From: Phycisphaerae bacterium
GTDB lineage: Bacteria; Planctomycetota; Phycisphaerae; FEN-1346; JAACEH01
Assembly: GCA_041690105.1 (NCBI GenBank)
Contig: JAWLHX010000005.1
Coordinates: forward strand, 1,551 to 65,550
Direction of reading: 5' to 3'
Length of the DNA stretch: 64,000 bases
Shown piece by piece: positions 1 through 14,737 of this stretch (its first letter is position 1; every line of letters begins with the position of its first letter). The notes under the pieces were generated by a model. It did not search any database. It was not told where the DNA came from and saw nothing but the letters and a program-made list of their open reading frames with translations. Both the position numbers and the translations under genes were made by a program.

Positions 1-519
1 ATTGCGATATGCTGCGATGGCCGCGGGCAAGGCTTCCTTGGCCCTTGGGGCCATGGCTTCGTTGCGGGCCAGGCGCAAGACTTCGGCGTGCAGAATGGCG
101 TCGGGCGACTTCTGGCCGGCAATAACGCCCAGCACGGCCAGTTGCACCTCTGGCCGATCGGTTCGCTGCAGGGCGGCCGAGAGAATGGCCCGGGCGGCAT
201 CGCTGTTGCGATTCATAAGCAGCACGGCCGCATCCTGCCGATTAGCCGGCGTCGATTCGGGCCGCGTAAGTATGGCCTCAACCAGGCGCAATTCGTTTTC
301 GGCACTGTCGTCAGTAACTGGTTCCTGGGTGGGAGTTTCAACCGGGACTTCGGTGGAATTGTCGGCCGCAGCACTGCCAGCGGGCTCCGATGGCGCCCCA
401 ACCTGCTCCGACGGCACCACAACCTGCCCCGAAAGCGGCACCGCGGCACAGCCAAAGAGCACCATCAGGGTGAACGATGCCAGAGCGACCAGATTGAATG
501 TTCTGTGCTTACTCAGCAT
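1..519 (-). CDS. Putative lipoprotein with helical (HEAT-like) region; runs off the window edge
   Basis: Not in the ORF track. Manual translation from ATG at 519: MLSKHRTFNLVALASFTLMVLFGCAAVP...ELRLVEAILTRPESTPANRQDAAVLLMNR..., open to base 1. Lipobox-like LFGC followed by a Pro/Glu/Thr-rich linker. Confidence 0.7.
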   Translation of the reverse strand, partial: MLSKHRTFNLVALASFTLMVLFGCAAVPLSGQVVVPSEQVGAPSEPAGSAAADNSTEVPVETPTQEPVTDDSAENELRLVEAILTRPESTPANRQDAAVLLMNRNSDAARAILSAALQRTDRPEVQLAVLGVIAGQKSPDAILHAEVLRLARNEAMAPRAKEALPAAIAAYRN

Positions 520-670
520 GTATCAGGACCCGTTGGTTCATTTTGAACTGCGATTGCCGATTCCCTGTTTATTCCAGACGTCCACCTGCTGCTATTATTC
601 GGCCATATCCTGGCTATGGCACCCGCAAAAGTCTGTTGCAGAACATCCGGCGGCAAGCCAGCGGCCACAA

Positions 671-2959
671 TTATTCCGCCGGCGGCAACTTCTGCGAGCT
701 GAAGCTGTCCACCTTGACTTCATCGGCATCCGAGCGCGAAACAAGATAATAAAGCAGATCCACCGTCTGTTCGCCCTGCAGGATGACCCGTGGCGGTATC
801 GATTTCTCGAAAACTTCCTGGCCTTTCAGCCTGACCGAGAGCGGCGCTATGGCGTTGGCCGACTTACCCTCGGCCAGCACCTTTACCTGTCCCGGCTCCA
901 CGTAATAATAGCTACGATCATCGGACTTCGAAGGGCTAAATAATAATTGCACTAAAACGTATTGGCCGCCAACGCCGGCATCGGTCTTCATTACGCGGGT
1001 GCCAATGGTGACCTCCGGCAGAACCTGCACTTTGCTGACCCGCAGCCCGTGGCTGCTGGAGCGGGCCTGGCGACTATCGAGCTGCAGATACCACTCGGGA
1101 GCGGTCTCGGGCAGGTCGCCGGCCAAGGACCAGGCAACATCGCGGAAGTTCGTGCCGCGCTTCACCTGAGACACAAACTGTACCTTGGCGGTAGCCCCCT
1201 TTGTAAGCACCATCTGCCAGTCGGCGCTCAGCAGGGCCATCTTCTTCTTGTCCTTATCGTGCTTTGCTTCAATCTCCTGGCCGAGCCGGACAAATTGCCG
1301 TTTCGATGAATCGTGGTAGACGTAACCTTTAAGGGCGTCAGCATCGTCGGTAAAGTCAAGCTCATCGTTGAGCAACGACACCCGGAAGGCATCGCCCTGC
1401 CCCTTGGCTTTCAGTTGCAGATCTTCGCTTCCAAGGCCTATCGGAGCGTTACCCTTATTCTCAATTCGGGCTTCGACTACGAAGAATTCCTCGTCGCTCC
1501 CGCTGCTCAGGTCAAACTGATTCAGCCGCGGCATGCGGTCGGCCTTATCCACCGTCAGCTCGAGCTGGCCAAGCGTCGCCACGGCCTTGGGCATAAGCCC
1601 CTGCGGCGGCTCGCTGGAGGAGGTCCCCGCGACTACATCGTCCGAAGAGTAGCGCAAGGCATAATTCCACGGTTGGCTCAGGTGCGGAACCAGAAAAACC
1701 AGCGTCGTCCGGACCTGCGAGCGATCGCTCGCCGGAGGGAAGCGCCAGACGGCGCTGTCGGCAACAAAAAACAGCTCTTGACCATCGCGCAGCCCGCTGA
1801 AATCCTCCGGGCGCTGGTACGTAACCGAACCATCAATAACATGCTCGCCCACCGTCGGCGGAAGCTGGAAGCGGCTCTCCAAGTTGCTCCACGTGCCAAC
1901 GCCAATCAGCTTGGGCCGGGCATGTTCGAAGAAGTACCTTTGCTCGCGGCGGGCGGTCGGCTCGGGTTTCACCAGGTTGGACGACAGCTTGAAGTTGGCA
2001 AGTGGCACATCCATCGAAGCATCCGTCTCAGGCTGGAAGGTGACATCGACCAGCAGCAAATCGTGCCGCTCGGCCTCTGCCTCCATCTGCCCGCCACTCT
2101 GGTCCAGCCATTTCAGGTCGGCAGGCGATATGGCCGTACGCTCGTCGCGATCGATTTGCGGCGAGATAATCGCCGGCACAATCCGTGCACCTTCAATTTT
2201 AATTCGCAGGTTATCCTGAACCGACTGGCCGGCAATAAGGGCGGCGCCGATTCCGGCGCTGGAGGACATCGGCCCCTTGCCCTCCTGATCCAGGAAGGTC
2301 AGGGCAACGCGACGCCGGAAGTACTCGTAAAGAATGTCGTCACTGTTGCGGCCGCGATAGGGGTTGTCTCGCACGGCAGTGCTGGCAACGGCCAGAGCAT
2401 TTTCGGGGTAACGGTTCGGGTAGCGCCCCGGCAGGCCGGCTTCGTCGGTCGACAAGGCTCCACGGCTGAGCCCGCTGTACATGCCGAGCACCGCATCATC
2501 GTACCGCAGGCTCATGCGCTGCTCGCGGTCGCGACCATCGAAGCCGAATGGCTGATAACCCAGGACCGAGGGCGGCATGGGCATCATCTGGGCCACGACA
2601 ACCACAACGCCGGCGGCAAAATATCCGGCTACCACACCACCAACCGCCCCCAACGCTCCATCAATAAGGTCCGGCAGACTCATCCGGCGACGCAGTTGGG
2701 CGCCCATCAGCAGTCGTAGCAACCCCAAGCTTACGATAAACAGAATAAGCAAAGCCAGCCCATCGGCCCAATAGTACGATTTGGACACTGGGTCGGGGTT
2801 GCTGACCATCAGCCTGGATACCGGCAGATAAAAGCCGAAGGCCACTGCCCCGCTGACAATCACCGTCCACAGGCTCATTACGCCTGCCCAGGCGCCAGCT
2901 TTGAAATGAAGCAGAGCGCTGGCCAGCACTATTACTATGGCCAAAATCTCAAGGAACAC
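671..2959 (-). CDS. CvpA (colicin V production)-like membrane domain fused to a large soluble beta-rich region, 762 aa
   Basis: Four N-terminal hydrophobic helices with a CvpA-like pattern (D..LGAVGGVVAGY). About 600 aa soluble C-terminus with DUF4352-like segments (FFVVEARIENKGNAPI; YVLVQLLF). GTG start, TAA at 671. Confidence 0.65.
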   Translation of the reverse strand: MFLEILAIVIVLASALLHFKAGAWAGVMSLWTVIVSGAVAFGFYLPVSRLMVSNPDPVSKSYYWADGLALLILFIVSLGLLRLLMGAQLRRRMSLPDLIDGALGAVGGVVAGYFAAGVVVVVAQMMPMPPSVLGYQPFGFDGRDREQRMSLRYDDAVLGMYSGLSRGALSTDEAGLPGRYPNRYPENALAVASTAVRDNPYRGRNSDDILYEYFRRRVALTFLDQEGKGPMSSSAGIGAALIAGQSVQDNLRIKIEGARIVPAIISPQIDRDERTAISPADLKWLDQSGGQMEAEAERHDLLLVDVTFQPETDASMDVPLANFKLSSNLVKPEPTARREQRYFFEHARPKLIGVGTWSNLESRFQLPPTVGEHVIDGSVTYQRPEDFSGLRDGQELFFVADSAVWRFPPASDRSQVRTTLVFLVPHLSQPWNYALRYSSDDVVAGTSSSEPPQGLMPKAVATLGQLELTVDKADRMPRLNQFDLSSGSDEEFFVVEARIENKGNAPIGLGSEDLQLKAKGQGDAFRVSLLNDELDFTDDADALKGYVYHDSSKRQFVRLGQEIEAKHDKDKKKMALLSADWQMVLTKGATAKVQFVSQVKRGTNFRDVAWSLAGDLPETAPEWYLQLDSRQARSSSHGLRVSKVQVLPEVTIGTRVMKTDAGVGGQYVLVQLLFSPSKSDDRSYYYVEPGQVKVLAEGKSANAIAPLSVRLKGQEVFEKSIPPRVILQGEQTVDLLYYLVSRSDADEVKVDSFSSQKLPPAE

Positions 2960-2971
2960 GCCGCACCCTCC

Positions 2972-4756
2972 CTACTTTGCCGGCTTCAGCACGCGAAGCA
3001 GTTCTGTCACGCTGGTTTCGCCGCTGACGACTTTTCGCAATCCCTCTTCCTGCAGGAAGTCCTGCCCCTGCTTGCGAAGATGAGAACGTACTTCGGTCAG
3101 CGATTTGCCCGACGACAGTTGACGCCGGGCCTCGTCATCAAAAACAACTACTTCGTAAATGAATGTCCGACCGTGATAGCCTTCGTTGTTGCACAGCGGG
3201 CAGACAATAACCTCGCCCTTTTTGTCCACTGGTCGGCTTTTCGGCTCACGGTACAGGACCTCGACCTGCGAAGCCTGCAGATTGGCCTTGCGCAGAAAAT
3301 CAGGATTCGGACGATAGCCCTCGCGACAACCCGGGCACAGCTTGCGCATCATCCGCTGATTGGTGGCCGCACGAAGCAGGCTTGCTGCACTGCGGACATC
3401 GCCGCTGGCCTGCAGAAACTTTTCGATCGCATCGGCCGCATCGTTGGCGTTAAGTCCGGCAACCATCATCTTGCCTGCCGCCGCCCCGTTTATCAGCACC
3501 TTGGCCGCGGCCGCTTCTTCAAGCGTCTCGAGCATGACCACGTCCGGGTCGGCTCGCAAGGCAGCCTGCATCGTCTGGGCCACAACGTCGCCGCCCTGGC
3601 GACCGGCTTCCAACTGCTGAATGTCGGGGTATTCGATGCTGATTTGCGTCGTCACAGCCATTACGTTCTTACTGAACAGGTCGAACTCGCGCATGGCGGC
3701 GTACATGCTGATGAGCCGCCGGTTGTAATTCGGTGAGCCCATCAGCACCATTCCGCCTTGCGGACTGTTGAGGGCCTCGCGCAGGGCGGCCACCTGCTCC
3801 GGCCGCATACCCGAATCTTCCAGCCTCATCTCAATCAGCTCGCGCGGATGCAGCCGCATCAGCAACTGCTCGCCGCGGACGCTGCCGGCGGCCTCAACCG
3901 TGATGAAGGTGCTGCGTTCGCCTTCCAGCACAATGAGGCGGCCATTCTGCGGCTTTCGATGCTCCTTCACATCCAGATCGGCCAGCCGCTTGAAGAAAGC
4001 CGTCACGCCAGCCGCCTGGGCCGGCTCGACAGTGCCGCCGTCTCGCAGAATACCGTCGCCACGGTAGCGCACCTGCAACTGCTGGCCCTGCGGAATCAGG
4101 TAAAGCTCCTCGGCATCCAGGCGCAGGGCCTCGTGCAGCAAACGTTCTGCCTGCGAAAATTCCGCCTCCTGCTGCTCGTTTTCCGGGCGCAGGCGGATGG
4201 GGAAATCGTTCGTCTTCATGTAAACCAGTTTGAGCTGCTCGGTGAGCTGCGACCTGGCCGCTACATGCACGGCCCGTTCGGCGGCCGACTCACCCTCCTG
4301 CTCGCGACGGAGCAGCCGATTTTTGACCCGTTCGGCATGGGCGGCAGTGAAAATGCGAACCCGGGCCGGCACCAGTGGGTTGCGCCACGAGGCATACCAG
4401 GCCATCACACCGCCCACCATGGCCAAGGCCAGCAGCAGGCCGACAATCAGCCAGGGCACGACCAGCACGATGATCAGGGCCAAGGCCGCCACGGCCAGCA
4501 TGGTCGAAAGCCACTGCACGACATTCTTCTGCAGCAGAACCACGTCGCCCGCCAACCAGTTGCCGGTAGCCCCGACAACCATCATAAGCAGCACCAGGGC
4601 GATTATTTTCCACATGCTCAGTGCTGCGCCCTGGGCCAGGTCTTCCGTTGGCTCGACCGGCGAAGCGGCCGCCATGGCAGCAGGGGCGAAAACTGCCGCC
4701 ACCAAGAGGGCCAAGGTCACCATCAGCAGAACCGATGCAGCGCGACTTCGTATCAT
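2972..4756 (-). CDS. GspE/PilB-like protein with N-terminal TM helices and degenerate ATPase motifs
   Basis: PilB-type segments are recognisable (VRYRGDGIL, EHRKPQNGRL, ALRADPDVVM, QRMMRKLCPGC, CPLCNNEGYHGRTFIYEV, EGLRKVVSGETSVTELLRV). The Walker A position reads GSPNYNRR. Confidence 0.85.
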   Translation of the reverse strand: MIRSRAASVLLMVTLALLVAAVFAPAAMAAASPVEPTEDLAQGAALSMWKIIALVLLMMVVGATGNWLAGDVVLLQKNVVQWLSTMLAVAALALIIVLVVPWLIVGLLLALAMVGGVMAWYASWRNPLVPARVRIFTAAHAERVKNRLLRREQEGESAAERAVHVAARSQLTEQLKLVYMKTNDFPIRLRPENEQQEAEFSQAERLLHEALRLDAEELYLIPQGQQLQVRYRGDGILRDGGTVEPAQAAGVTAFFKRLADLDVKEHRKPQNGRLIVLEGERSTFITVEAAGSVRGEQLLMRLHPRELIEMRLEDSGMRPEQVAALREALNSPQGGMVLMGSPNYNRRLISMYAAMREFDLFSKNVMAVTTQISIEYPDIQQLEAGRQGGDVVAQTMQAALRADPDVVMLETLEEAAAAKVLINGAAAGKMMVAGLNANDAADAIEKFLQASGDVRSAASLLRAATNQRMMRKLCPGCREGYRPNPDFLRKANLQASQVEVLYREPKSRPVDKKGEVIVCPLCNNEGYHGRTFIYEVVVFDDEARRQLSSGKSLTEVRSHLRKQGQDFLQEEGLRKVVSGETSVTELLRVLKPAK

Positions 4757-4782
4757 GTGCCTGTCTCTCCCGCCTTCTGGCC

Positions 4783-5907
4783 TCAGCGGATAATTCCTTG
4801 CTTCACCGCAATGCCCTTCAGGGCCATTCGCAGCGCGTCCTGGTTGGGCGCATATTCGTAAGCCGTCTGATGATTAATCCAGCCCTTGCTGACAAGTTCG
4901 GCAAAGCTGGTGGTGAAGTCGATCATGCCCTCATTTACTCCGGCGGCTATCACTTCGCCAAGCTTATCGTCTTCGCTGTCGCGAATAAGCCGCCTGGCCA
5001 TGCCGGTGCCCATCAATATTTCCAGGGCCGGAACCCGCTTGGCCTCGGGCATCTCGCTCGGCACCAGAATCTGCACGATAATACCGGCCAGACTGAAGGC
5101 CAGGCTCTGCCGCACAGCCTTCTGCTGATCGTCCGGATAAAGGTCCAGAATGCGACCAATGGCCGACCCGGCGCTGGAGGCGTGCAGGGTGGCAAACACC
5201 AGGTGACCGGTCTCGGCGGCCTGAATTGCCGCCTCGAAGGTATCGCGGTCGCGCATTTCGCCAATCAGCACAACGTCGGGGTCCTCGCGCATCAGGTACT
5301 TCAGGGCCAACTCCATGCTCTCGACATCGGTACCGACCTCGCGCTGGCTGACAAAGGCCCGCTTGTCCTCGTAGAGGAATTCGATCGGATCCTCGATCGT
5401 CACAATGTGGCACGAGCGAGTCTGGTTGATGTGTTCCAGCATACTGGCGATACTGGTGCTTTTGCCGCTGCCCGTCTGGCCGGCAAAAATTATCAGCCCC
5501 TGGTGCATTTTGGCAAGCCTCTGCAGCGGGGCCTCGGGCAGATGCAGCTCGGAAAATGTGGGTATGCGACGTTCGACCCGGCGGCAACTGACGCTGGTGA
5601 AGCCGCGTTGCCGGAATACGTTGATGCGGAAGCGGTCGCCGTTTTCGGCCGTGTGAGCAAAATCGGTGCTGCCGATGCGCTCGTAGTCGGACTTCAGGCG
5701 GTCATCCATGACGGCCAGCACAAGTTGCTCGATCTCCGGGCTTTCGAGAGCCCGCACGCTTGTCTGCTTAATCTGCCCCTCGACCCTCAGGGCCGGAGCC
5801 ATGCCATGCTTCAGATGCAGATCGCTGGCCTTGAATTGCACGGCTATGCTGAGCAGGCGATCAATCGTCAACTCGACCGAGCGACCGTTAATCTCCACCT
5901 GCACCAT
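4783..5907 (-). CDS. pilT: PilT/PilU-family type IV pilus retraction ATPase
   Basis: ASDLHLK, Walker A GQTGSGKST, TIEDPIEF, Walker B DPDVVLIGEMRD, His box GHLVFATLH. Start reassigned to ATG 5907 because the longer ORF overlaps hisF. Confidence 0.92.
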   Translation of the reverse strand: MVQVEINGRSVELTIDRLLSIAVQFKASDLHLKHGMAPALRVEGQIKQTSVRALESPEIEQLVLAVMDDRLKSDYERIGSTDFAHTAENGDRFRINVFRQRGFTSVSCRRVERRIPTFSELHLPEAPLQRLAKMHQGLIIFAGQTGSGKSTSIASMLEHINQTRSCHIVTIEDPIEFLYEDKRAFVSQREVGTDVESMELALKYLMREDPDVVLIGEMRDRDTFEAAIQAAETGHLVFATLHASSAGSAIGRILDLYPDDQQKAVRQSLAFSLAGIIVQILVPSEMPEAKRVPALEILMGTGMARRLIRDSEDDKLGEVIAAGVNEGMIDFTTSFAELVSKGWINHQTAYEYAPNQDALRMALKGIAVKQGIIR

Positions 5908-5962: not shown

Positions 5963-6742
5963 CTAGACCGCCTCCCGGTGTCGCACCGGAACTCCGCGGC
6001 CCTGAAGATAACCTTTGACCTCGGCAATGCTGAACTGCCGGTAATGGAAAATGCTGGCCGCCAGGGCGGCATCGGCCCCGCCCTCAACCAGCGCTGCCCG
6101 CATGTGCTCCGGACTGCCACAACCGCCGCTGGCAATAACCGGCACGCTTACGGCCTCGGCCACTGCCCGGGTCATTTCAAGATCGTAGCCATCCTGCGTG
6201 CCGTCGGCATCCATGCTTGTCAGCAGAATTTCGCCCGCCCCAAGGGCAACCACCTGCTCGGCCCAGCTTACGGCCTCCAAGCCGGTCGGCAGACGCCCGC
6301 CGTCAATATGAACTTCCCAGAAGTCGCGGCCCTCGCGCTGCACCCGTTTCGGATCGATTGCCACCACTATGCACTGCGACCCGAACCGGCTGGCAGCCTG
6401 GCGAACGAAATCCGGATTGCGCACGGCCGGCGAATTGATTGAAACCTTATCGGCACCGGCCTTCAGAATTTCGCGAATGTCGTCCAGCGTCCTTATGCCG
6501 CCGCCAACCGTCAGCGGCATGAAGCATCGATCGGCCGTACGGCGGACCACATCCAGTATAATGGGCCGCTTCTCGTGGCTTGCGGTAATGTCCAGAAAAA
6601 CAAGCTCGTCGGCCTCTTCCTGCTCGTAACGCTCGGCCACCTCGACGGGGTCACCGGCGTCGCGCAACTCAAGGAATCGCGTCCCTTTAACGACGCGGCC
6701 TTCCTTGATGTCCAGACAGGGTATTATCCGCCTCTTGAGCAT
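5963..6742 (-). CDS. hisF: Imidazole glycerol phosphate synthase cyclase subunit
   Basis: [67 protein letters not shown]. Confidence 0.98.
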
Positions 6743-6886
6743 TAAGACATTCCCGAAAAGAGTCGATTATATCTGTCGCAAAAGGGATTGCAAGCTTCCG
6801 GCACGGCAAAGACGGCCCTCGGGTGATATTATTCCTGCCGCGACACATGTCCGCCGCGCCACCCGGGGCCCAGCGGCCACCGCTTT

Positions 6887-7765
6887 TCAGCTCCTGACCC
6901 TGTTGCGGATTCGGCCAAGGCCGCTTATTTCGCACTCCACCACGTCGCCCGGCTGAAGGTAAATCGGCGGCTCTCGATAGTGCCCGACGCCCGATGGCGT
7001 GCCCAGCGAAATGCAATCGCCGGCCTCAAGAGTCATAAACTGGCTGATGTAACTGATGGTCGCCTCGGGGGTGAAGATTATGTCCTCGCCGGCATTGGCC
7101 TGCTGCACGACCTGGCCGGCGTCGCTCCCGGCCTCACCGTGATACAGTCGGCAGGTCAGGTCCATCTTCTGCCATGGGCCGGCTTCGTCAATGGTCACCA
7201 GCGCGGGGCCCATCGGGGCGAAGGTGTCCGGGCTTTTACCCCGGTGCCACTGGCTGGCGGCAAACTGCCAGTCGCGGGCCGATACGTCATTCATCACCGT
7301 ATAGCCGGCCACATACGACAGGGCCTCGCCTTCGGAGACCTTCTTGCACGTGCGGCCAATCACCACGCACAGTTCCACCTCCCAGTCGACCTTATCGGTG
7401 CCCTGGGGGATGACAATGTCGCCGGTCGGGCCGTTAAGGGCCGTGACTGCCTTTGAGAACAGCAGCGGGGCCGTGGGCAGCGGCTTGTCGTTTTCTTCGG
7501 CGTGGCTGTGAAAGTTGAGGCCAAGGCAGACGATTTTGCCCGGCCTGTCCACGGGCGCCCATAGCGTTACATCGGCAGGCAGCAGGGCCTCGGCCGGTAC
7601 GCTCTTGGCACTGATTTCACGCAATTCTTCCAGCCGCCCCTGGGCCAGAATATCCACCACTCGCCGCGGACCGGCAGGCCAGGCAATCGACAGATCGACT
7701 ATTGCGCCATCGGTCTGCAGCCCTGCCCGGCGGCCCTTCGAATCGTTAATGGTCACAAGACGCAT
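6887..7765 (-). CDS. Fumarylacetoacetate hydrolase family protein
   Basis: KIVCLGLNF, PLLFSK, DWEVEL, GYTVMNDVSARD, GKSPDTFAPMGP, GTPSGVG. Start set at ATG 7765 (MRLVT), which has a GGAG upstream. Confidence 0.93.
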   Translation of the reverse strand: MRLVTINDSKGRRAGLQTDGAIVDLSIAWPAGPRRVVDILAQGRLEELREISAKSVPAEALLPADVTLWAPVDRPGKIVCLGLNFHSHAEENDKPLPTAPLLFSKAVTALNGPTGDIVIPQGTDKVDWEVELCVVIGRTCKKVSEGEALSYVAGYTVMNDVSARDWQFAASQWHRGKSPDTFAPMGPALVTIDEAGPWQKMDLTCRLYHGEAGSDAGQVVQQANAGEDIIFTPEATISYISQFMTLEAGDCISLGTPSGVGHYREPPIYLQPGDVVECEISGLGRIRNRVRS

Positions 7766-7907
7766 AGCAAGCTCCTTTTCATGGGCCTCACCAGTCGCCA
7801 CTGCATCGCCGCAGATGGCCGGCATAAGGTGGTCAGCATACCATGAAGCCAACCGAGCCGCAAAAAAAACGTGCCCGTCCGCGAGGACTCAACTTATAAT
7901 GTGCCAG

Positions 7908-8372
7908 ATGGATCATCTTGATGAGAAGATTCTCGACGTCATTCAGCGCGGCTTTCCCATCGATCCGCAGCCCTACGCACGCATAGCCGAAACCGTAGGC
8001 GCGGACGAGCAGGAGGTCTATCAGCGCGTCATGGCTCTGCTCGATTGCGGCGTGCTGCGCAGGCTGGGGGCCAGTTTTAACAGTCGGCGTTTGGGCTTTA
8101 CCAGCACGCTGGTTGCCCTCCGCCTGCCGGAGGTAGAGGTAGCACGCGTGGCCGGCATGGTAAACCGCTATGCCCAGGTGACGCACAACTATCAGCGCGG
8201 CGGGCAGTGGAATCTCTGGTTCACGCTGATTTCTCGCAGTCGGCAGGAAATTCAGCAGATTCTCTCCGAGATCAGGCAACAGGCCGCCTTGGACCAGGCC
8301 GACATGATGGAACTGCCAGTGCAGCGGATGTTCAAGATCGACGTTCAGTTCCGACCATCCTGCAGCAACTGA
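7908..8372 (+). CDS. ahbA: Lrp/AsnC-like siroheme decarboxylase subunit (AhbA/NirD type)
   Basis: ILDVIQRGFPIDPQPYARIA, LRRLGASFNSRRLGFTSTLVA, VTHNYQR, NLWFTLI, LPVQRMFKIDVQF are typical of the AhbA/NirDL family. Confidence 0.8.
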   Translation: MDHLDEKILDVIQRGFPIDPQPYARIAETVGADEQEVYQRVMALLDCGVLRRLGASFNSRRLGFTSTLVALRLPEVEVARVAGMVNRYAQVTHNYQRGGQWNLWFTLISRSRQEIQQILSEIRQQAALDQADMMELPVQRMFKIDVQFRPSCSN

Positions 8373-8430
8373 TAATCCGCCGCCCAGGCGCCGTTGCAGC
8401 CGGTGCCGCATCCGGAGGAGGTATTGAACT

Positions 8431-9003
8431 GTGAAACCCGCACTTCCGCCACGCTCGACAGCGCTAATATCGGCCGCTGCGGCTCTTGTGCTCGTGTGTG
8501 CGGCCGGTTGCGATAATGCCCTCTCCTCACTCGACTACGTCAACCAGCCAACCGGTGTGCGCAAGGTTTCCAGCAAAGAGTCGGCCTGGCGATATGCCGA
8601 CGGCGGCCGCATCGAGGTGGTTGTCAACGAGCAATGGGAGATGCCTGGCGGCGAGGCCGTGCCCGATATTGATTACATCTATTTGCTGCTGCCCGACCAG
8701 CCGGGCCAGTATGTACTGGAAAGCGACCCGATAATTTTTTATCGTCTTGTTCGCCGCAACCGGGAGGAGTTGGTTTACACGCCGCAAAGCGCGACGGTGA
8801 CGCTGGAGCACCGCAGCAACGGCCGCATTGCAGTGCACTTTTCGGGCCTTCTTTTTGCCATCGGCCGGCCTGTGGCGCTGGACGGTACAGCCAAACACCT
8901 GGAATTCTGGCAGACGATCAAGCAGGATGACAACCTGGTCCGCCGGCTTCTGATACGTCATCACGAGCGTCTTCGCACGCTTAAACAAGAGATTCAGGAC
9001 TGA
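8431..9003 (+). CDS. Hypothetical lipoprotein
   Basis: Signal peptide ending in AAGC; follows ahbA-like gene on the same strand; no family recognised. Confidence 0.7.
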   Translation: MKPALPPRSTALISAAAALVLVCAAGCDNALSSLDYVNQPTGVRKVSSKESAWRYADGGRIEVVVNEQWEMPGGEAVPDIDYIYLLLPDQPGQYVLESDPIIFYRLVRRNREELVYTPQSATVTLEHRSNGRIAVHFSGLLFAIGRPVALDGTAKHLEFWQTIKQDDNLVRRLLIRHHERLRTLKQEIQD

Positions 9004-9032
9004 TCTATTGCAGACAGGAAAGGACAATCAGT

Positions 9033-10124
9033 ATGAGTAACATGCTTCGCGTTGGCATCATCGGCAGTGGGAGTTGGGCCCGGTTCCATGCCCGCTGCCT
9101 GCAGGAAATCGAAAACGTTTCGCTGATCGCCTGCTGCGACGTGCACGACGAAACCTGCCAGTCGTTCGCCAAGGATTTCAAAATCGAGTCGACCTACAGC
9201 GATTACCGCGAAATGCTGGAAAAGGAAGATCTGGACGCCGTCAGCATTGTGGCCAGCGACGTGGTGCACTGCCCGGCTGCCCTGGCCGCACTCGACCGCG
9301 GGTTGCACGTCATGTGTGAGAAGCCCATGGCCGTCACGCTCGATGAAGCCGAGCAGATGTATGCCGCCGCCACAAAGGCCGGCACCATGAACATGATCCA
9401 GTTCAGCTATCGCTCGGCCCCCGCACTTGAACAGGCGCGTCAACTGGTGGCCGAGGGACGGCTCGGGCGCATAATGCACGTTGAGGCCTCGTACCTGCAG
9501 TCGTGGCTGGTCTCTAACGCCTGGGGCGATTGGCGGAAAAGCTCGGCCTGGCTCTGGCGCCAGAGCAAAGCCCACCACGGCGGGACGCTGGTGGACATCG
9601 GTTGCCACATTTTCGACTTCGCCGCATACGTTGCCGGAGACATTACCGAGGTCTCCTGCTCGATGAAGAACTTCGAGAAGACGCCCGGCAACATCCACGG
9701 TGAATGGACCCTTGATGCCGATGACAGCTTCGTCTGCCGGACAGGTTTTGCCAACGGCGCAATCGGTGTCGTGCACAGCTCGCGATGGGCCACCGGCCAT
9801 CTCAACTCGCTCCGCCTGAGGGTCTTCGGCGACAAGGGCGGCTTGGCGATCGATACCGACCGTGGCAATGATAAGCTCAGCGTATGCGTGGACGATTTCC
9901 ACACCCAGAACGCTCTCTGGACCGAGATGCCGGTCAAACTGACCGTGCCCAACAACTTTGTCCGCTTCATCCGCAGCATTCGTTCGGGCAAGGCCGAGGG
10001 TGCGACTTTTGAGGATGGCCTGAAGATTCAGCGCGTGCTGGACGCCTGCGTACGCTCCAGCAAAGAGGGCCGCTGCGTAAGCCTCCCGGCCAACGCCGAA
10101 GAGACCGCCGCCGCCAGCGTCTGA
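9033..10124 (+). CDS. Gfo/Idh/MocA family oxidoreductase
   Basis: VGIIGSGSWA Rossmann motif, HVMCEKPMA, GTLVDIGCHIFD, HSSRWATG. Confidence 0.93.
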   Translation: MSNMLRVGIIGSGSWARFHARCLQEIENVSLIACCDVHDETCQSFAKDFKIESTYSDYREMLEKEDLDAVSIVASDVVHCPAALAALDRGLHVMCEKPMAVTLDEAEQMYAAATKAGTMNMIQFSYRSAPALEQARQLVAEGRLGRIMHVEASYLQSWLVSNAWGDWRKSSAWLWRQSKAHHGGTLVDIGCHIFDFAAYVAGDITEVSCSMKNFEKTPGNIHGEWTLDADDSFVCRTGFANGAIGVVHSSRWATGHLNSLRLRVFGDKGGLAIDTDRGNDKLSVCVDDFHTQNALWTEMPVKLTVPNNFVRFIRSIRSGKAEGATFEDGLKIQRVLDACVRSSKEGRCVSLPANAEETAAASV

Positions 10125-10158
10125 TGCGCAAGGCTTGATGCCTCAGTGAAGAAACAAT

Positions 10159-10208
10159 AAAAAGGTGCCGCGAGCTGGAACAATCAGCCGCGACACCTTT
10201 TTGTTTTT
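10159..10208. terminator. Bidirectional intrinsic terminator
   Basis: AAAAAGGTG-CCGCG...CGCGA-CACCTTTTTG hairpin with A and T tracts, between convergent genes. Confidence 0.7.
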
Positions 10209-10236
10209 GAGATTTTCCGCTACCCGTCATCCCGTC

Positions 10237-10267
10237 GGGTGCCACCCACAAACTCGTTTGTGGGTGC
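10237..10267. repeat. REP-like palindrome, copy 1
   Basis: GGGTGCCACCCACAAAC-TC-GTTTGTGGGTG; a related copy lies inverted at 27086-27121. Confidence 0.65.
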
Positions 10268-10329
10268 TCTACCTCAACCGTGACTAATTCAGCATATAAC
10301 AACATGAACCACAGCCAACTAGACCTGCA

Positions 10330-11010
10330 TCAACCTTGCAACAACGGATCAACAATACCGGCCTCGGCAAAGGCACTGCTTCGCAATTCGCAGCTCGAGC
10401 AATCCTGGCAAGGCACATCTTCCTGCCTGTAGCACGACCAGGTCAGCTCGAAGGGGGCATTAAGCCGGTCGCCCAGGCGGACAATCTCCGGCTTGCTCAA
10501 CTTTATCAGCGGCCCCTCCACCCGGATATTTGTCTCGGGACGGGTGCCCTGGCGAATCAGGGCGTTCATGGACTCAAGGTACTCGGCCCGGCAATCGGGG
10601 TAGCCGGGAGCATCCTCCTCCACCACGCCGATGAAAATCTTCTCGGCACCAAGCACTTCGCCCCAGCTCACAGCAATGCTGATCAGGTGCGTGTTGCGGA
10701 AAGGCACGTACGAGGCCGGCACGCCCCCACTGTGCTGCCCCTTGCGCGGGACCTCGATGCGACTATCAGTCAGGGCGCTGCCGCCAATCTCGGCCAGGTA
10801 TCGCACGTCGGCCACCAGGCGGTGCTTTACATCGTAATAGCCGGCAATCTGGTAAAAGCTGATGAGCTCGCGGGCCTCGGTCCGCTGGCCGTAATTAACG
10901 TGCAGCAAGGCCAGCTCGTAGCCCTCATCGGCGGCCACGGCGGCGGTGACGCAGGAATCCATGCCCCCGCTCAGCAGCACGATGGCCAGCTTATTGTCGC
11001 CCTTGTCCAT
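10330..11010 (-). CDS. queC: 7-cyano-7-deazaguanine synthase
   Basis: LLSGGMDS, YGQR, YVPFRN, YPDCR, TWSCY, CQDCSSCELR. Confidence 0.96.
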   Translation of the reverse strand: MDKGDNKLAIVLLSGGMDSCVTAAVAADEGYELALLHVNYGQRTEARELISFYQIAGYYDVKHRLVADVRYLAEIGGSALTDSRIEVPRKGQHSGGVPASYVPFRNTHLISIAVSWGEVLGAEKIFIGVVEEDAPGYPDCRAEYLESMNALIRQGTRPETNIRVEGPLIKLSKPEIVRLGDRLNAPFELTWSCYRQEDVPCQDCSSCELRSSAFAEAGIVDPLLQG

Positions 11011-11889
11011 CTATCCGCCTTTCCGGTTGCCTATCAGCATAGCCTGCCGACCGGCCCTGCCGCCGTCGCGCCTGTAACTGTGCAGACGGCTGTCGCAATG
11101 CGTGCAGTGGCCACTCAACATAATATTTTCTGATAACAGCCCCAGCGACACCAGTTGATAACATAGCACCGCCTCCAGATCAAGATGCAGTCCACCGTCC
11201 AGCGGCACAAAATGTTCCGGCAGTGCCCGGCCATCCGGCAGCAACTGGCCCTTTAGATCGGCCCCGACCTGGTAGCAGCACGGGCCGATGCTCGGGCCGA
11301 CCAAAGCCCGCAAGCTATTCACCCGCGCTCCGCGGGAGATCATCAGCTCGACAGTAGCCTGCAGCACACCCGCCGCCAACCCACGCCAGCCGGCATGGGC
11401 CACGGCCACCAGCGGCTTGCGGTGGGCGGCATCATTATCACGACCATGCCCCTGCTCTTCCCACAGCGCCACCAGCGGACAATCGGCCGATAGCGCAACC
11501 AGGGCCACCTGCTGGTCGTCGGTAACCAGGGCGTCGGCCCCGGCGATTGCGCCACTGCGCTCTGACAGACCGGCCCCGGCGTCGGCCGAATCCACCCATG
11601 ACGCCCGCCCGGCATGTACCTGCTCCATGAAGACAAGTTGCTGCCCGGCGAGTCCCGCCAGTTCAGCCAGGCGCTCGCGATCGGCCGGAGATGCTGCCCG
11701 ACCGTCGGCCGCGTAGCCAAGATCAGGCCGATGCTGCGACCCGCCTATTGTGAAGGCGATAAAGGGGCCGTCGGGCGAGCACACATCCGGAGCGGGACGC
11801 AAGTGTGGCAGATTATCCGCCCCCTGCCCGTCGGCCGAAACCATTGCCCAGGGACTGCCCGATGCTCGTGTTGGAGTGCTGGAGCTCAT
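11011..11889 (-). CDS. pgeF: YfiH/PgeF (laccase-domain, purine nucleoside phosphorylase-like) protein
   Basis: EQVH, ADALVT, SADCPLV, AHAGWRG, GPSIGPCCYQVG, HCT...SYRRDG. ATGA overlap with the upstream ADH stop. Confidence 0.9.
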   Translation of the reverse strand: MSSSTPTRASGSPWAMVSADGQGADNLPHLRPAPDVCSPDGPFIAFTIGGSQHRPDLGYAADGRAASPADRERLAELAGLAGQQLVFMEQVHAGRASWVDSADAGAGLSERSGAIAGADALVTDDQQVALVALSADCPLVALWEEQGHGRDNDAAHRKPLVAVAHAGWRGLAAGVLQATVELMISRGARVNSLRALVGPSIGPCCYQVGADLKGQLLPDGRALPEHFVPLDGGLHLDLEAVLCYQLVSLGLLSENIMLSGHCTHCDSRLHSYRRDGGRAGRQAMLIGNRKGG

Positions 11890-12860
11890 TTGCCGCCACT
11901 GTTGCGCAGGACGATTTTCAGATTCTCGGGCCGCTGGGCCGCCTCGAAGGCCTCCGCGGCCTTTTCCAGCGGAAAGCTGCCGCTAATAAGCCCGTCCAGG
12001 TTGATGCTGCCTTCATTCAGGGCGGCAATGGCCTGCGGAAATGGTCCGCAGCGCGAGCCAAGTACCGTTATCTCGTTAACCACCACTGGAGCCAGGTTGA
12101 TTCCACTATCGGCGGCAATGGTGCTTTTGAGCACAATTGTGCCGCGCGAGCGGACGTAATCCATAGCCATCCTGAAACCGTCGGCGCTGCCACTGGCCTC
12201 AACCACCAGGTGGGCATCGTTGCGCGGGCGAGCCTCGTCGACCGTCAGGCAACTTATGCCCATACGCTCCAGCCGGCGGAGTTTCTCGGCGTGTTTGCCG
12301 ATAACCAGCGGGCGCACACCGTGCGACTGCATTACCTGGGCAATAAGCTGACCGAGTCGCCCATCGCCAATTACCACGCTCTGCTGCCGGGGGTTAAGCT
12401 TAACCTGCTGGGCCACCTGGAAGGCGGCCGCCAGAGGTTCCACCAGCACGGCCTCCTCGTCCGACACGCCGTCGGCAATGCGATGCACATTATCAACCGG
12501 GATGGCCACCCGCTGCGCCATGCAGCCATCGCGCCCGCTGATGCCCAGAACAGTACGCCGCTGGCAATGAGTGCTGAGGCCCATGCGGCACATTTCGCAC
12601 TGCCCGCACACGCAGTTGATTTCGCCCACCACGCGTCGGCCAACCAAGGGCCGGCCTTCGTGCCCGCCGCAGGAGCGTACCGTGCCCACGAACTCGTGCC
12701 CCAGAACGCCCCGGAAGTCCATGTAGCCGCGCGTAATTTCAATGTCGGTCTGGCAGATGCCCGCCAGGTGCACGTCGACGATGACCTCCTGGGCCGCGGC
12801 CACAGGCTCCGGATAATCGTCGACCACTCGAAGTTTCCCATCAAAGACGACAGCCTTCAC
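11886..12860 (-). CDS. Zn-dependent medium-chain alcohol dehydrogenase family protein
   Basis: GICQTD, GHEFVG, CGQCEMC...HC structural Zn site, EPLAAA, IGDGRLG. Confidence 0.93.
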   Translation of the reverse strand: MKAVVFDGKLRVVDDYPEPVAAAQEVIVDVHLAGICQTDIEITRGYMDFRGVLGHEFVGTVRSCGGHEGRPLVGRRVVGEINCVCGQCEMCRMGLSTHCQRRTVLGISGRDGCMAQRVAIPVDNVHRIADGVSDEEAVLVEPLAAAFQVAQQVKLNPRQQSVVIGDGRLGQLIAQVMQSHGVRPLVIGKHAEKLRRLERMGISCLTVDEARPRNDAHLVVEASGSADGFRMAMDYVRSRGTIVLKSTIAADSGINLAPVVVNEITVLGSRCGPFPQAIAALNEGSINLDGLISGSFPLEKAAEAFEAAQRPENLKIVLRNSGGK

Positions 12861-12891
12861 TCGATCCTCTCCATTTCGGCCGAAACGCTGC

Positions 12892-13704
12892 TCAGTCGAA
12901 CGGACCTTCTTCGCGCTCCAGCGGGAAAAGGTCGCCGAGTATCTGCCGCGTCTTCTGCTGACGTTCTTCGGTCATGCCCAGGGTCGGCTCGGCCGCTTTG
13001 CGCTGCTTGGGCGGATTACCGTAATCGGCCAGCGGATTTTCAGTTTCCTGCAGATAGCTCGCCCAGGCCTCGCGATCGTAGCCGAAATCGTGCCCGGTCA
13101 TGTATCGCAGGCTATCGGCCGCATAATAGCGGACGGCCGGGTCGTCTTCGCTCGGCTCCAGGGCTACCAGCAGAGCCTCGGCCGACTGCCCGTCACGATG
13201 CTGGCGAAGGGACTGCGCCGCTGCCAGGCGCACATCGGAACGCGGGTCGCCACGCAGTGCACCGGCCAGGGCAGCCTGGGCCTCGTTGCTTTCGATCTCA
13301 CCCAAAGCTTGGGCACATTCGCTGCGGACATGAACATCGGGGTCTTTCTCCAGGCACAGTCGCAGCTCTTCGACACTGCTCTGCCGCCCCCAGATGCCCA
13401 GCGTCCGGGCCACCTGGGCCCGCACCAGCGGATCGGTCTCGCCCAGCAGGCTCAGTTCGACCAGGTCGACCAGTTCTTCGCCCGGATCGCTCCACCTGCT
13501 CATCTCGTAGAAGGCTTTGCGCCGGGCGTCGGCATCGTCCTGATCGACCGAAGCCTCGATAACCGCCGCTCGCTTGCTGCCGGATGTCCCGAAAGGCGAG
13601 CCCAGTTCGTATTCCTGACCGTCGTAACAGCCTGCCAGCGTCGCCACCAACAGTGTGGCCGCCAACAGCATCTGTGCCCCGGGGCGCCTGCCGCTTGTGA
13701 TCAT
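12892..13704 (-). CDS. HEAT-repeat lipoprotein
   Basis: Lipobox LAGC; repeated DPxVRxxAAxxL units (DPLVRAQVARTL, DVHVRSECAQAL, DVRLAAAQSL, DPAVRYYAADSL). Confidence 0.85.
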   Translation of the reverse strand: MITSGRRPGAQMLLAATLLVATLAGCYDGQEYELGSPFGTSGSKRAAVIEASVDQDDADARRKAFYEMSRWSDPGEELVDLVELSLLGETDPLVRAQVARTLGIWGRQSSVEELRLCLEKDPDVHVRSECAQALGEIESNEAQAALAGALRGDPRSDVRLAAAQSLRQHRDGQSAEALLVALEPSEDDPAVRYYAADSLRYMTGHDFGYDREAWASYLQETENPLADYGNPPKQRKAAEPTLGMTEERQQKTRQILGDLFPLEREEGPFD

Positions 13705-13713
13705 CTTCTCACC

Positions 13714-14577
13714 TCAACTGGTAGTGTTTAACTGCTCCGTCCGGCAAATGGCCGGATGCTCATTCAGGAAGAAGTCATCCGGCTCAACCAGTGTAACATC
13801 GCGCAGGGTCTCGCCCTGCATGAATCGTTCGCCAATGGCCCGGAACCGGTCCGGATTATCGCTGACATAACAGCGCAGGCCGCCGGCAGAACCATCTGGA
13901 GCCATAAGTTGCTGACGCTCCAGCATTTGCAGAACATCGCTGGCAACCTCTTCGGCCGAATCGACCAGGCTGACCTGCGGCCCCATGAAGTCGGCCAGGG
14001 CCTCCTTCAGCAACGGATAATGCGTGCAGCCGAGCACCAGGGACGATATCCGCCCCTTAACCGGTTCGAGGTACTCGCCCACAGCGGCCCGCACAATGGG
14101 GTCGGCAACGCTGCGACCTTCCTCCACCAGGGGCACCAGCAGGGGACAGGCACGTTCCCATATCTCATTGCGGCAACCAAGGTTACGAATTGCACGATAA
14201 TAGCTGCGAGAGGCTATGGTCGATTCCGTGCCGACAATGCCTATGGCCCCATCGGCCGGGCAGTCGGCCACCGCCCGGCGGGCGCCGGGTTCAATAACTC
14301 CAACCACCGGCAGCGAAGCGGCTTGCGATACGACATCCAAGCCCGCCGCCGTGGCCGTGTTGCAGGCCACGACAATCATCTTCAGGTCGAATCGCATCAG
14401 GAACTGCGTGTTCTGCAGGCTGTATCGGCGGACGGTGATAGGGCTTTTTGTGCCGTAAGGCACGCGGGCTGTGTCGCCAAAGTAGATGAATCGCTCTTTT
14501 GGCAACTTTCGGCGCAGGGCGGCCAGCACTGTCAAGCCGCCTATGCCGCTGTCAAATACACCAATAGCCCGGTGCAT
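13714..14577 (-). CDS. murI: Glutamate racemase
   Basis: IGVFDSGIGGLTV, GDTARVPYGTKS, VVACNTAT, VLGCTHYPLL. Start at ATG 14577. Confidence 0.97.
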   Translation of the reverse strand: MHRAIGVFDSGIGGLTVLAALRRKLPKERFIYFGDTARVPYGTKSPITVRRYSLQNTQFLMRFDLKMIVVACNTATAAGLDVVSQAASLPVVGVIEPGARRAVADCPADGAIGIVGTESTIASRSYYRAIRNLGCRNEIWERACPLLVPLVEEGRSVADPIVRAAVGEYLEPVKGRISSLVLGCTHYPLLKEALADFMGPQVSLVDSAEEVASDVLQMLERQQLMAPDGSAGGLRCYVSDNPDRFRAIGERFMQGETLRDVTLVEPDDFFLNEHPAICRTEQLNTTS

Positions 14578-14737
14578 GGCCCGCCTCTCGTGAGAAATTC
14601 CGGATAAAAATCTTTGCCGTCGCAGAAGATTTACCGGAGGCATCATAAGTGGGCAAAAGGCTTAATGCAAGCGATTAAGAGGCCATCGGGGGAGACCTGC
14701 GTCCGATAACTCTGCTCTATCTGCCATTATGCCACTC

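Follow-up and report, generated by a model that had tools for sequence, protein, structure and literature searches.

A planctomycete gene module pairing a membrane-anchored PilB paralog with a CvpA-family protein and, usually, a dedicated PilT

Composition of the module in a Phycisphaerae genome

A 64,000-nucleotide stretch of the genome of a Phycisphaerae bacterium (hereafter the window; C5:1551–65550, where C5 is the 89.85-kb contig JAWLHX010000005.1 of the 3.9-Mb, 154-contig assembly GCA_041690105.1) carries near its left end a pilT gene, a gene for a membrane-anchored and catalytically dead paralog of the assembly ATPase PilB/GspE, and a gene in which a CvpA-like membrane domain is fused to a long tail. 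These genes constitute a real, selected module built from known parts, the function of which we infer only. We place at about even the reading that the window holds the Phycisphaerae form of an old planctomycete module, with the anchored PilB and CvpA as its core and a dedicated PilT as the usual third member, acting as an envelope machine. No published description of a pilT/anchored-PilB/CvpA module was found in the literature.

Open reading frame (ORF) calls place hisF, pilT, the PilB/GspE-like gene, the CvpA fusion gene, and a gene for a HEAT-repeat lipoprotein in that order on the minus strand, separated by 55, 26, 12, and 151 bp. An earlier sequence-only reading of this region had described four co-oriented genes, from pilT to the lipoprotein gene, with gaps of 26, 12, and 151 bp; all of these ORFs do lie on the minus strand, and the gaps are exact. 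The principal features, in window positions, are as follows.

4783–5907, minus strand: pilT, with its ATG at 5907; 374 amino acids (aa), an intact hexameric ATPase of the PilT/PilU family
2972–4756, minus strand: gene for the anchored, catalytically dead PilB/GspE paralog; 594 aa, PF00437
4373–4756, minus strand: N-terminal membrane part of that paralog (aa 1–128), with signal peptide, acidic segment, and three predicted transmembrane helices
2993–4147, minus strand: its T2SSE N2 and C-terminal ATPase-fold domain (aa 204–588), with four degenerate motifs and a retained Cys4 zinc site
3728–3754, minus strand: degenerate Walker A motif GSPNYNRRL in place of GPTGSGK[ST]T, from alignments to PilF/PilB and to the genome's own PilBs
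671–2959, minus strand: CvpA fusion gene; 762 aa, PF02674 plus DUF4352
2570–2950, minus strand: CvpA (Colicin_V) four-transmembrane domain (aa 4–130), PF02674, with four hydrophobic segments
710–2272, minus strand: tail, predicted to be periplasmic, with roughly four beta-rich blocks resembling beta-sandwiches in an AlphaFold 2 (AF2) model
1–519, minus strand: start of the HEAT lipoprotein gene, with a signal peptide and LFGC; open at the window edge

The PilB-like protein matches the T2SSE family (PF00437) with 177 bits over residues 204–588 and falls far below the cut-offs of the assembly-ATPase models (TIGR02533, 207 vs. 630.25 bits; TIGR02538, 197.6 vs. 675.65 bits). The N-terminal GSPII/N1 domain (PF05157) has no match in this protein; instead, hydropathy and charge counts indicate a signal peptide that looks cleavable (AMA/AAS), a short acidic stretch on the outside, and three transmembrane helices. 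Because the basic side comes after the last helix, the predicted topology is N-out, C-in. The AF2 model, with an overall predicted local distance difference test score (pLDDT) of 79, places helices at residues 2–29, 48–75, 79–99, and 103–128 (pLDDT 75–88 over residues 50–130), followed by a body of the N2 and C-terminal domains (CTD). Foldseek aligns this model to Geobacter PilB (5tsh_E) with a template modeling (TM) score of 0.88 and to Thermus PilF (5oiu_B) with a score of 0.85, and it matches GspE structures as well.

The sequence-only reading had called this gene a pseudo-PilB, and rightly so. Read by alignment to PilF/PilB structures and to the PilBs of the same genome, all four catalytic motifs are lost: Walker A has changed from GPTGSGK[ST] to GSPNYNRR, the Asp box from EDPVEY to TTQISIEY, Walker B from MVGEIRD to MLETLEE, and the His box from LHTNDA to LNANDA. 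Both CxxC pairs of the zinc site (CPGC and CPLC) and the N2 motif RKPQNGR are retained. Across 17 family members 55 columns are invariant, including the zinc site and the N2 RxPQxGR motif; in the N-terminal membrane part, D71, W82, P101, G106, Y121, R125, and N126 are likewise invariant in all 17. The three helices, the PilB fold, and the lost motifs together therefore point to a folded, membrane-embedded pseudo-ATPase.

The PilT of the module passes the PilT/PilU model TIGR01420 (386.3 bits against a cut-off of 319.1) and matches the Thermus PilT2 structure (PDB 5fl3) with an E value of 1.9e-78. Its catalytic motifs are intact in the translation as aligned to PilT structures: the Walker A motif reads GQTGSGKST, the Asp box IEDPIEF, the Walker B motif LIGEMRD (with the Walker B Glu in DPDVVLIGEMRD), and the His box TLHASSA.

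The CvpA fusion protein matches PF02674 with 42 bits (cut-off 29.3) over residues 4–130, covering profile positions 2–125 of 144, and DUF4352 with 26.5 bits (cut-off 25.9) over residues 461–519. A weak NCBIfam match to the MarP family (16 bits) covers the transmembrane part only. The region of the four-transmembrane domain is the part conserved in every lineage, and a conserved juxtamembrane segment (QMMPxPP..LGY.PF...D..LG...LS.GAL) follows it. Beyond this, AF2 predicts a tail of about 550 residues of beta strands, with pLDDT 70–87 in blocks 230–330, 390–530, 555–620, and 635–750; a periplasmic location is predicted for it, given the four transmembrane helices and an RRR loop between the third and fourth. 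A fold search with the whole fusion model returned only matches with TM scores of at most 0.11 (integrins, vicilins) and was uninformative beyond "several beta-sandwiches." A word-based homolog search with the fusion protein retrieved only 3 relatives, and homologs were drawn from the loci instead; with the C-terminal part (CvpA_C) as the query, the long tail was matched only in loci L001, L002, and L036–L039 and in the window's own copy (L006).

In a pair of close relatives, the ratio of nonsynonymous to synonymous substitution rates (dN/dS) is 0.15 for pilT, 0.20 for the dead PilB-like gene, and 0.25 for the CvpA gene. By this sequence comparison, the dead PilB-like gene is under purifying selection.

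The product of the fourth gene is a probable lipoprotein with a signal peptide ending in LFGC; its reading frame stays open for at least 689 aa, up to the point where contig C5 stops, so that the assembly cannot show what lies beyond. Its homolog in L001 is an 810-aa HEAT-repeat protein (HEAT_2, 149 bits). This protein was found only in L001, L002, and L036–L038. The four-gene module of the sequence-only reading thus reduces to three genes, with the HEAT lipoprotein, like the extended tail of CvpA, confined to the closest relatives.

Contig C5 contains no T2SSF/PilC, secretin, or prepilin-like ORF over its whole length (PilM was not searched for), which bears out and extends the earlier observation that no pilin, PilC, or secretin was in view. 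The only two T2SSE genes on the contig are pilT and the PilB-like gene. Separate complete loci for type IV pili (T4P) or type II secretion systems (T2SS), the presence of which had been left to be checked, do exist on other contigs: these hold 12 more T2SSE genes, five secretin matches, five PilC/GspF genes (on C15, C118, C1, C9, and C98), two Tad-type sets (C29 and C17), and 37 prepilin-like ORFs clustered at pilus and secretion loci. Five PilB–PilC loci carry prepilins, three of them with secretins, and the pilus loci on C15 and C118 carry a PilT of their own. A scan for prepilin motifs in about 45 related loci of at least 8 kb gave one match, 5 kb off and on the opposite strand (L074). The sequence-only reading had also allowed that pilin or PilC genes just beyond the left edge might make this an ordinary T4P operon; in relatives whose contigs extend further, genes for a ROK protein, LepA, and signal peptidase follow the lipoprotein gene, with no pilin or PilC downstream, and so that case did not arise.

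Separately, a DUF1559-type prepilin-like gene (N_methyl plus SBP_bac_10; L151, 7749–8756) lies just after an active anchored PilB–CvpA pair in an outlying genome; no other close neighbor with pilin-like features was observed.

Distribution, linkage, and catalytic state across Planctomycetota

The PilB-like family is sharply bounded, comprising 16 relatives at 29–69% identity before ordinary PilBs appear. Gene order persists as identity declines: L001 (52% identity) shows hisF, pilT, anchored PilB, CvpA, and a HEAT protein, then ROK, LepA, and signal peptidase; L003 (35%) shows hisF, pilT, anchored PilB, and CvpA; and L005 (29%) shows pilT, anchored PilB, and CvpA. A comparison of 64 loci shows the trio repeatedly in Phycisphaerae and Pirellulales, and in the loci of these groups with enough flank its members are adjacent, with L051 and L054 as the exceptions. 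Between pilT and the anchored PilB, the spacing runs from an overlap of 4 bp in L003 up to 26 bp in the window. The synteny survey proposed by the sequence-only reading thus upheld a conserved order, kept across Phycisphaerae, Pirellulales, and part of the Planctomycetaceae far beyond chance.

When 401 genomes of the phylum were scanned with a profile, about 50 gave full-length matches to the family; this is an undercount, because divergent members score below canonical PilB paralogs and only three candidates per genome were scored. Matches occur in most families of the window's class and in all sampled Planctomycetaceae, which are large, mostly complete genomes (the family assignment is taken from the names of close homologs: Rubinisphaera, Gimesia, Schlesneria). 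On the anchored-PilB family profile, the copy in the window reaches 914 bits; it has the family N-terminus on its PilB, CvpA directly downstream, and a clade-specific PilT upstream. In five f3 (Phycisphaerae) genomes and in G190, pilT precedes a divergent anchored PilB, and the locus stops short of where a CvpA gene could be seen.

Of 74 locus records (some genomes counted twice), 63 have the CvpA-partner gene as the next gene after the anchored PilB. The 11 that do not are all from Planctomycetaceae and have pilT beside the anchored PilB in its place; in each of the eight Planctomycetaceae genomes with this pilT–anchored PilB layout that were tested, a single CvpA-partner gene is present at another position, and none occurs in two genomes that lack the anchored PilB. 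The Planctomycetaceae show two mutually exclusive layouts, PilB–CvpA with pilT elsewhere or pilT–PilB with CvpA elsewhere (compared in L065–L072; genomes G043, G285, and G357 vs. G095, G344, G156, G173, and G270), and all three genes are retained in either. In one locus of this family (L068, 11502–12692), an Rce1-like CPBP intramembrane protease (60 bits) is encoded after the CvpA partner.

In the PilT tree, 51 module- or hisF-linked PilTs share one side of a branch supported at 94/94, and 18 of the 19 paralogs used fall apart from them; most of those paralogs adjoin PilB-type genes. On this sequence evidence, the module- or hisF-linked PilTs are a separate PilT clade. All 10 complete module-bearing genomes have exactly one high-scoring ortholog (300–363 bits, 43–48% identity), with paralogs scoring at most 255 bits. 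Five Planctomycetaceae genomes hold the module PilT 10 kb to 1.7 Mb away from the anchored PilB. The unlinked PilT still adjoins hisF in three of these five; the other two have no hisF within 1.5-kb flanks of the gene.

The family shows two catalytic states. In a motif table of 59 members, the anchored PilBs of Planctomycetaceae and of L034 keep GPTGxGK[ST]T, EDPxEY, GEIRD, and VHA, and the catalytic motifs are lost in all Phycisphaerae and in the three Pirellulales loci; the zinc site is retained in active and dead forms alike. None of the sampled Phycisphaerae families departs from the dead state. In L034 all three genes adjoin one another and the anchored PilB is active; a trio with two active ATPases therefore exists, as judged from sequence motifs. 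A tree of the ATPase domain places 13 of 16 comparison PilBs, including all seven of the window's genome, in one starred clade, and the dead groups sit on long stems (0.62 and 1.63); in the PilT tree, the Pirellulales group with the Planctomycetaceae. Together, the two trees suggest that catalysis was lost at least twice independently, in Phycisphaerae and in some Pirellulales. The proposition that the active or dead state predicts CvpA tail length was rejected, as the CvpA partners encoded in the dead Pirellulales loci are short (217–233 aa).

Several features of the records themselves deserve comment. Related contigs are labeled Phycisphaerae or Planctomycetota, and some are labeled "Anaerolineales": the module occurs in contigs titled "uncultured Anaerolineales/Anaerolineaceae" (L036, L039–L041, L043, L048, L050, L052, L053, L061, and L062). 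These labels look wrong, as the PilTs of these contigs nest among Phycisphaerae in the tree. In two metagenome-assembled genomes (MAGs) with the project prefix MFD, the anchored PilB is split into several frames (L063, 6257–8482; L064, 7866–9877), most likely through sequencing or assembly frameshifts rather than real pseudogenes. The stops flagged in many Planctomycetaceae matches are, by their coordinates, the genes' own terminal stop codons within the match and do not mark split genes.

The region upstream of the module in the window is housekeeping in character as far as 14.6 kb; positions 5963–14646 encode hisF, a FAA hydrolase, a NirDL-like regulator, an oxidoreductase, QueC, a laccase-domain protein, an ADH, a HEAT lipoprotein, and MurI. 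Two features lie upstream of pilT.

5963–6742, minus strand: hisF, PF00977 with 289 bits; 55 bp upstream of pilT
6766–6793, minus strand: promoter-like TTGCAA-16-TATAAT upstream of hisF; consensus match only

No terminator-like sites were found in the minus-strand intergenic gaps of the module, again by consensus matches only. Adjacency of hisF and pilT holds in most loci of both classes; hisF lies directly upstream of a module-clade PilT in the window and in L080, L083, L084, L087, and L108, and the tie is kept in the three genomes mentioned above from which the anchored PilB has moved off. It is a conserved neighbor of the module PilT clade and possibly the first gene of the transcription unit; no functional reason is apparent for tying a histidine-biosynthesis gene to a motor ATPase. 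A second, smaller HEAT-repeat lipoprotein is encoded at 12892–13704 on the minus strand, beside murI and 12 kb from the HEAT lipoprotein of the module, with a signal peptide ending in LAGC and a HEAT_2 match of 83 bits.

Proposed mechanism and competing explanations

In the mechanism proposed here, the anchored PilB would form the usual hexameric ring, fixed at the inner membrane by its own helices and touching CvpA inside the bilayer. The dead ring would serve as a docking and transmission scaffold for the intact and presumably co-transcribed PilT hexamer, and ATP-driven movements would pass through the transmembrane helices to CvpA and its periplasmic beta-sandwich tail, for which the HEAT lipoprotein is a possible partner. 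The output would, as a best guess, be an envelope process other than pilin polymerization, such as transport or remodeling. The ancestral form probably had two active ATPases, the anchored PilB and PilT, acting on CvpA.

The sequence-only reading had made CvpA itself the inner-membrane platform for a PilT-driven process. As worded, the platform role is not supported: only short cytoplasmic loops are predicted for the CvpA domain, and CvpA alone is therefore unlikely to be the docking platform for PilT. If there is such a platform, the dead PilB ring is the more likely one, with CvpA as the membrane or periplasmic output. The description "PilT-driven" does not extend to the family, given an active anchored PilB in Planctomycetaceae and L034, an unlinked PilT in several genera, and its absence from two MAGs in which the dead PilB and CvpA are retained.

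A number of observations weigh against the reading of an old module with an anchored PilB–CvpA core and a dedicated PilT. In L054 (6768–10811, genome G402), hisF is followed after 34 bp by a dead PilB and CvpA, with no pilT, and this genome and a second MAG (L051, G401) have only paralog-level PilTs, at 261 and 265 bits. Apparently the PilB–CvpA pair is used in this lineage without a dedicated active ATPase. The two loci and their genomes rule out the proposition that a dead anchored PilB always has a PilT in cis, and the lineages lacking PilT argue against any strict "PilT motor" model. Conversely, three genomes without the anchored PilB (G066, G008, and G176) have a module-level PilT, and in the two of these that were tested the CvpA partner was not found either. 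Two active anchored ATPases outside the core family are followed after 3–5 bp by a CvpA partner (E about 1e-17) and have no adjacent PilT. The backbone of the ATPase-domain tree is a polytomy, which leaves the monophyly of the anchored family unsettled, and the CvpA model has an overall pLDDT of 61, with low confidence in the membrane part. Lastly, canonical pilus loci accompany the module in each of the genomes examined that bear it, and action in trans on pili is therefore possible. Taken with the linkage counts, these exceptions indicate that the near-constant unit is the anchored PilB plus CvpA, with PilT a usual, old, and dispensable member.

Action in trans is the substance of the main alternative, in which the module is an accessory or regulator of a T4P or T2SS encoded elsewhere, the dead PilB parking PilT, for example, and CvpA serving as a co-factor. 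The five PilB–PilC loci with prepilins, three of them with secretins, and the Tad loci of the window's genome fit this account, as do the several T2SSE genes in every module-bearing genome scanned and the passage of PilT through the PilT/PilU family model; PilT-dependent helper ATPases such as PilU are also known (PMC6762196, PMC6821130). However, two of the canonical loci, on C15 and C118, already own a PilT, the linked PilTs form a separate clade, the module is not beside pilus genes in the roughly 45 flanked loci, and the anchored PilB–CvpA pair persists without a dedicated PilT. We consider this explanation possible, if rather unlikely. A narrower alternative, which we judge improbable, is that only the anchored PilB and CvpA cooperate and that the hisF-linked PilT is an independent retraction ATPase and merely an old neighbor. 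Its occurrence without the pair in G066, G008, and G176, the occurrence of the pair without it, and its persistence beside hisF in three of five Planctomycetaceae genomes after leaving the anchored PilB would all be expected of such a neighbor. The tight pilT–PilB junction, kept in two classes, speaks for a closer relationship, as does the near-constant retention of the PilT ortholog alongside the pair, linked or not (all 10 complete genomes); moreover, PilT is the sole intact ATPase of units with a dead anchored PilB.

The loss of all four catalytic motifs might also suggest that the dead PilB is a decaying, pseudogene-like remnant in a cluster without joint function. This is already contradicted by the conservation data and is scarcely credible: the frame is intact, dN/dS is 0.20, 55 columns including the zinc site and RxPQxGR are invariant in 17 members, the PilB fold is confidently predicted, and the dead state is found throughout the sampled Phycisphaerae families.

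Building on the reading of an anchored PilB–CvpA core with PilT as its usual third member, we tentatively advance a more specific proposal, to which we assign somewhat less than an even chance. A PilB-type ring plus CvpA, with PilT as a second motor, may represent an unrecognized, pilin-independent branch of the type IV filament ATPase machines in which CvpA replaces PilC/GspF as the membrane output; in Phycisphaerae, the ring would have become a dead, stator-like scaffold, and PilT alone would power envelope transport or remodeling.

Relation to known systems and significance

A close architectural parallel is the motor set of type IVa pili, PilB/PilT/PilC (often encoded as pilB–pilT–pilC), which likewise places PilB- and PilT-class ATPases beside the gene of a polytopic inner-membrane protein. 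The module PilB keeps the N2 plus CTD fold and the zinc site of that set. However, it is self-anchored, lacks N1/GSPII, and is dead in the window; its membrane partner is of the CvpA family, and pilT comes first. Unlike a type IVa pilus or T2SS operon, the module has no PilC, pilin, or secretin in cis (PilM was not searched for). A PilB/GspE-type ring is likewise held at the inner membrane in the GspE–GspL complex of the T2SS (PDB 4pht), though there the bitopic GspL tethers the ring through N1E, whereas the module PilB carries its anchor within its own chain and has no N1E.

For the CvpA protein, the relevant comparisons are E. coli CvpA and MarP of Mycobacterium tuberculosis, in which a CvpA-like transmembrane domain is fused to a periplasmic protease. 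All share the PF02674 four-transmembrane N-terminus, and the module protein, like MarP, has a large extracytoplasmic domain after it; in contrast to MarP, its tail has no protease domain and consists of beta-sandwich repeats including DUF4352. To our knowledge, a genetic tie to a T2SSE-family ATPase has not been reported for either CvpA or MarP.

The pairing of an active hexameric ATPase with a non-driving partner also has parallels, in FlaI–FlaH–FlaJ of the archaellum, where FlaH is such a partner, and in PilT–PilU. Those systems serve filaments of pilin or archaellin, whereas the inactive partner in the module is a membrane-embedded PilB paralog. We know of PilB/PilT-type ATPases otherwise only as motors of pilin-based filaments (pili, T2SS endopili, and archaella); related ATPases power type IV secretion. 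PilU depends on PilT (PMC6762196), and the function of CvpA has been described as largely unknown (10.1101/2020.09.25.314492).

A conserved ATPase set that is paired with CvpA and encoded without neighboring pilin or PilC genes would put this motor to a different use. The fixed genetic partner provides a testable handle on the widespread CvpA family and, if the proposal is true, would be the first mechanistic partner for this enigmatic family. The natural series—both ATPases active, the anchored one dead, PilT lost—lends itself to the study of how pseudo-enzymes originate in molecular machines, and the presence of the active form in cultured, genetically tractable Planctomycetaceae, for example Planctopirus limnophila and Gimesia, makes direct tests possible.

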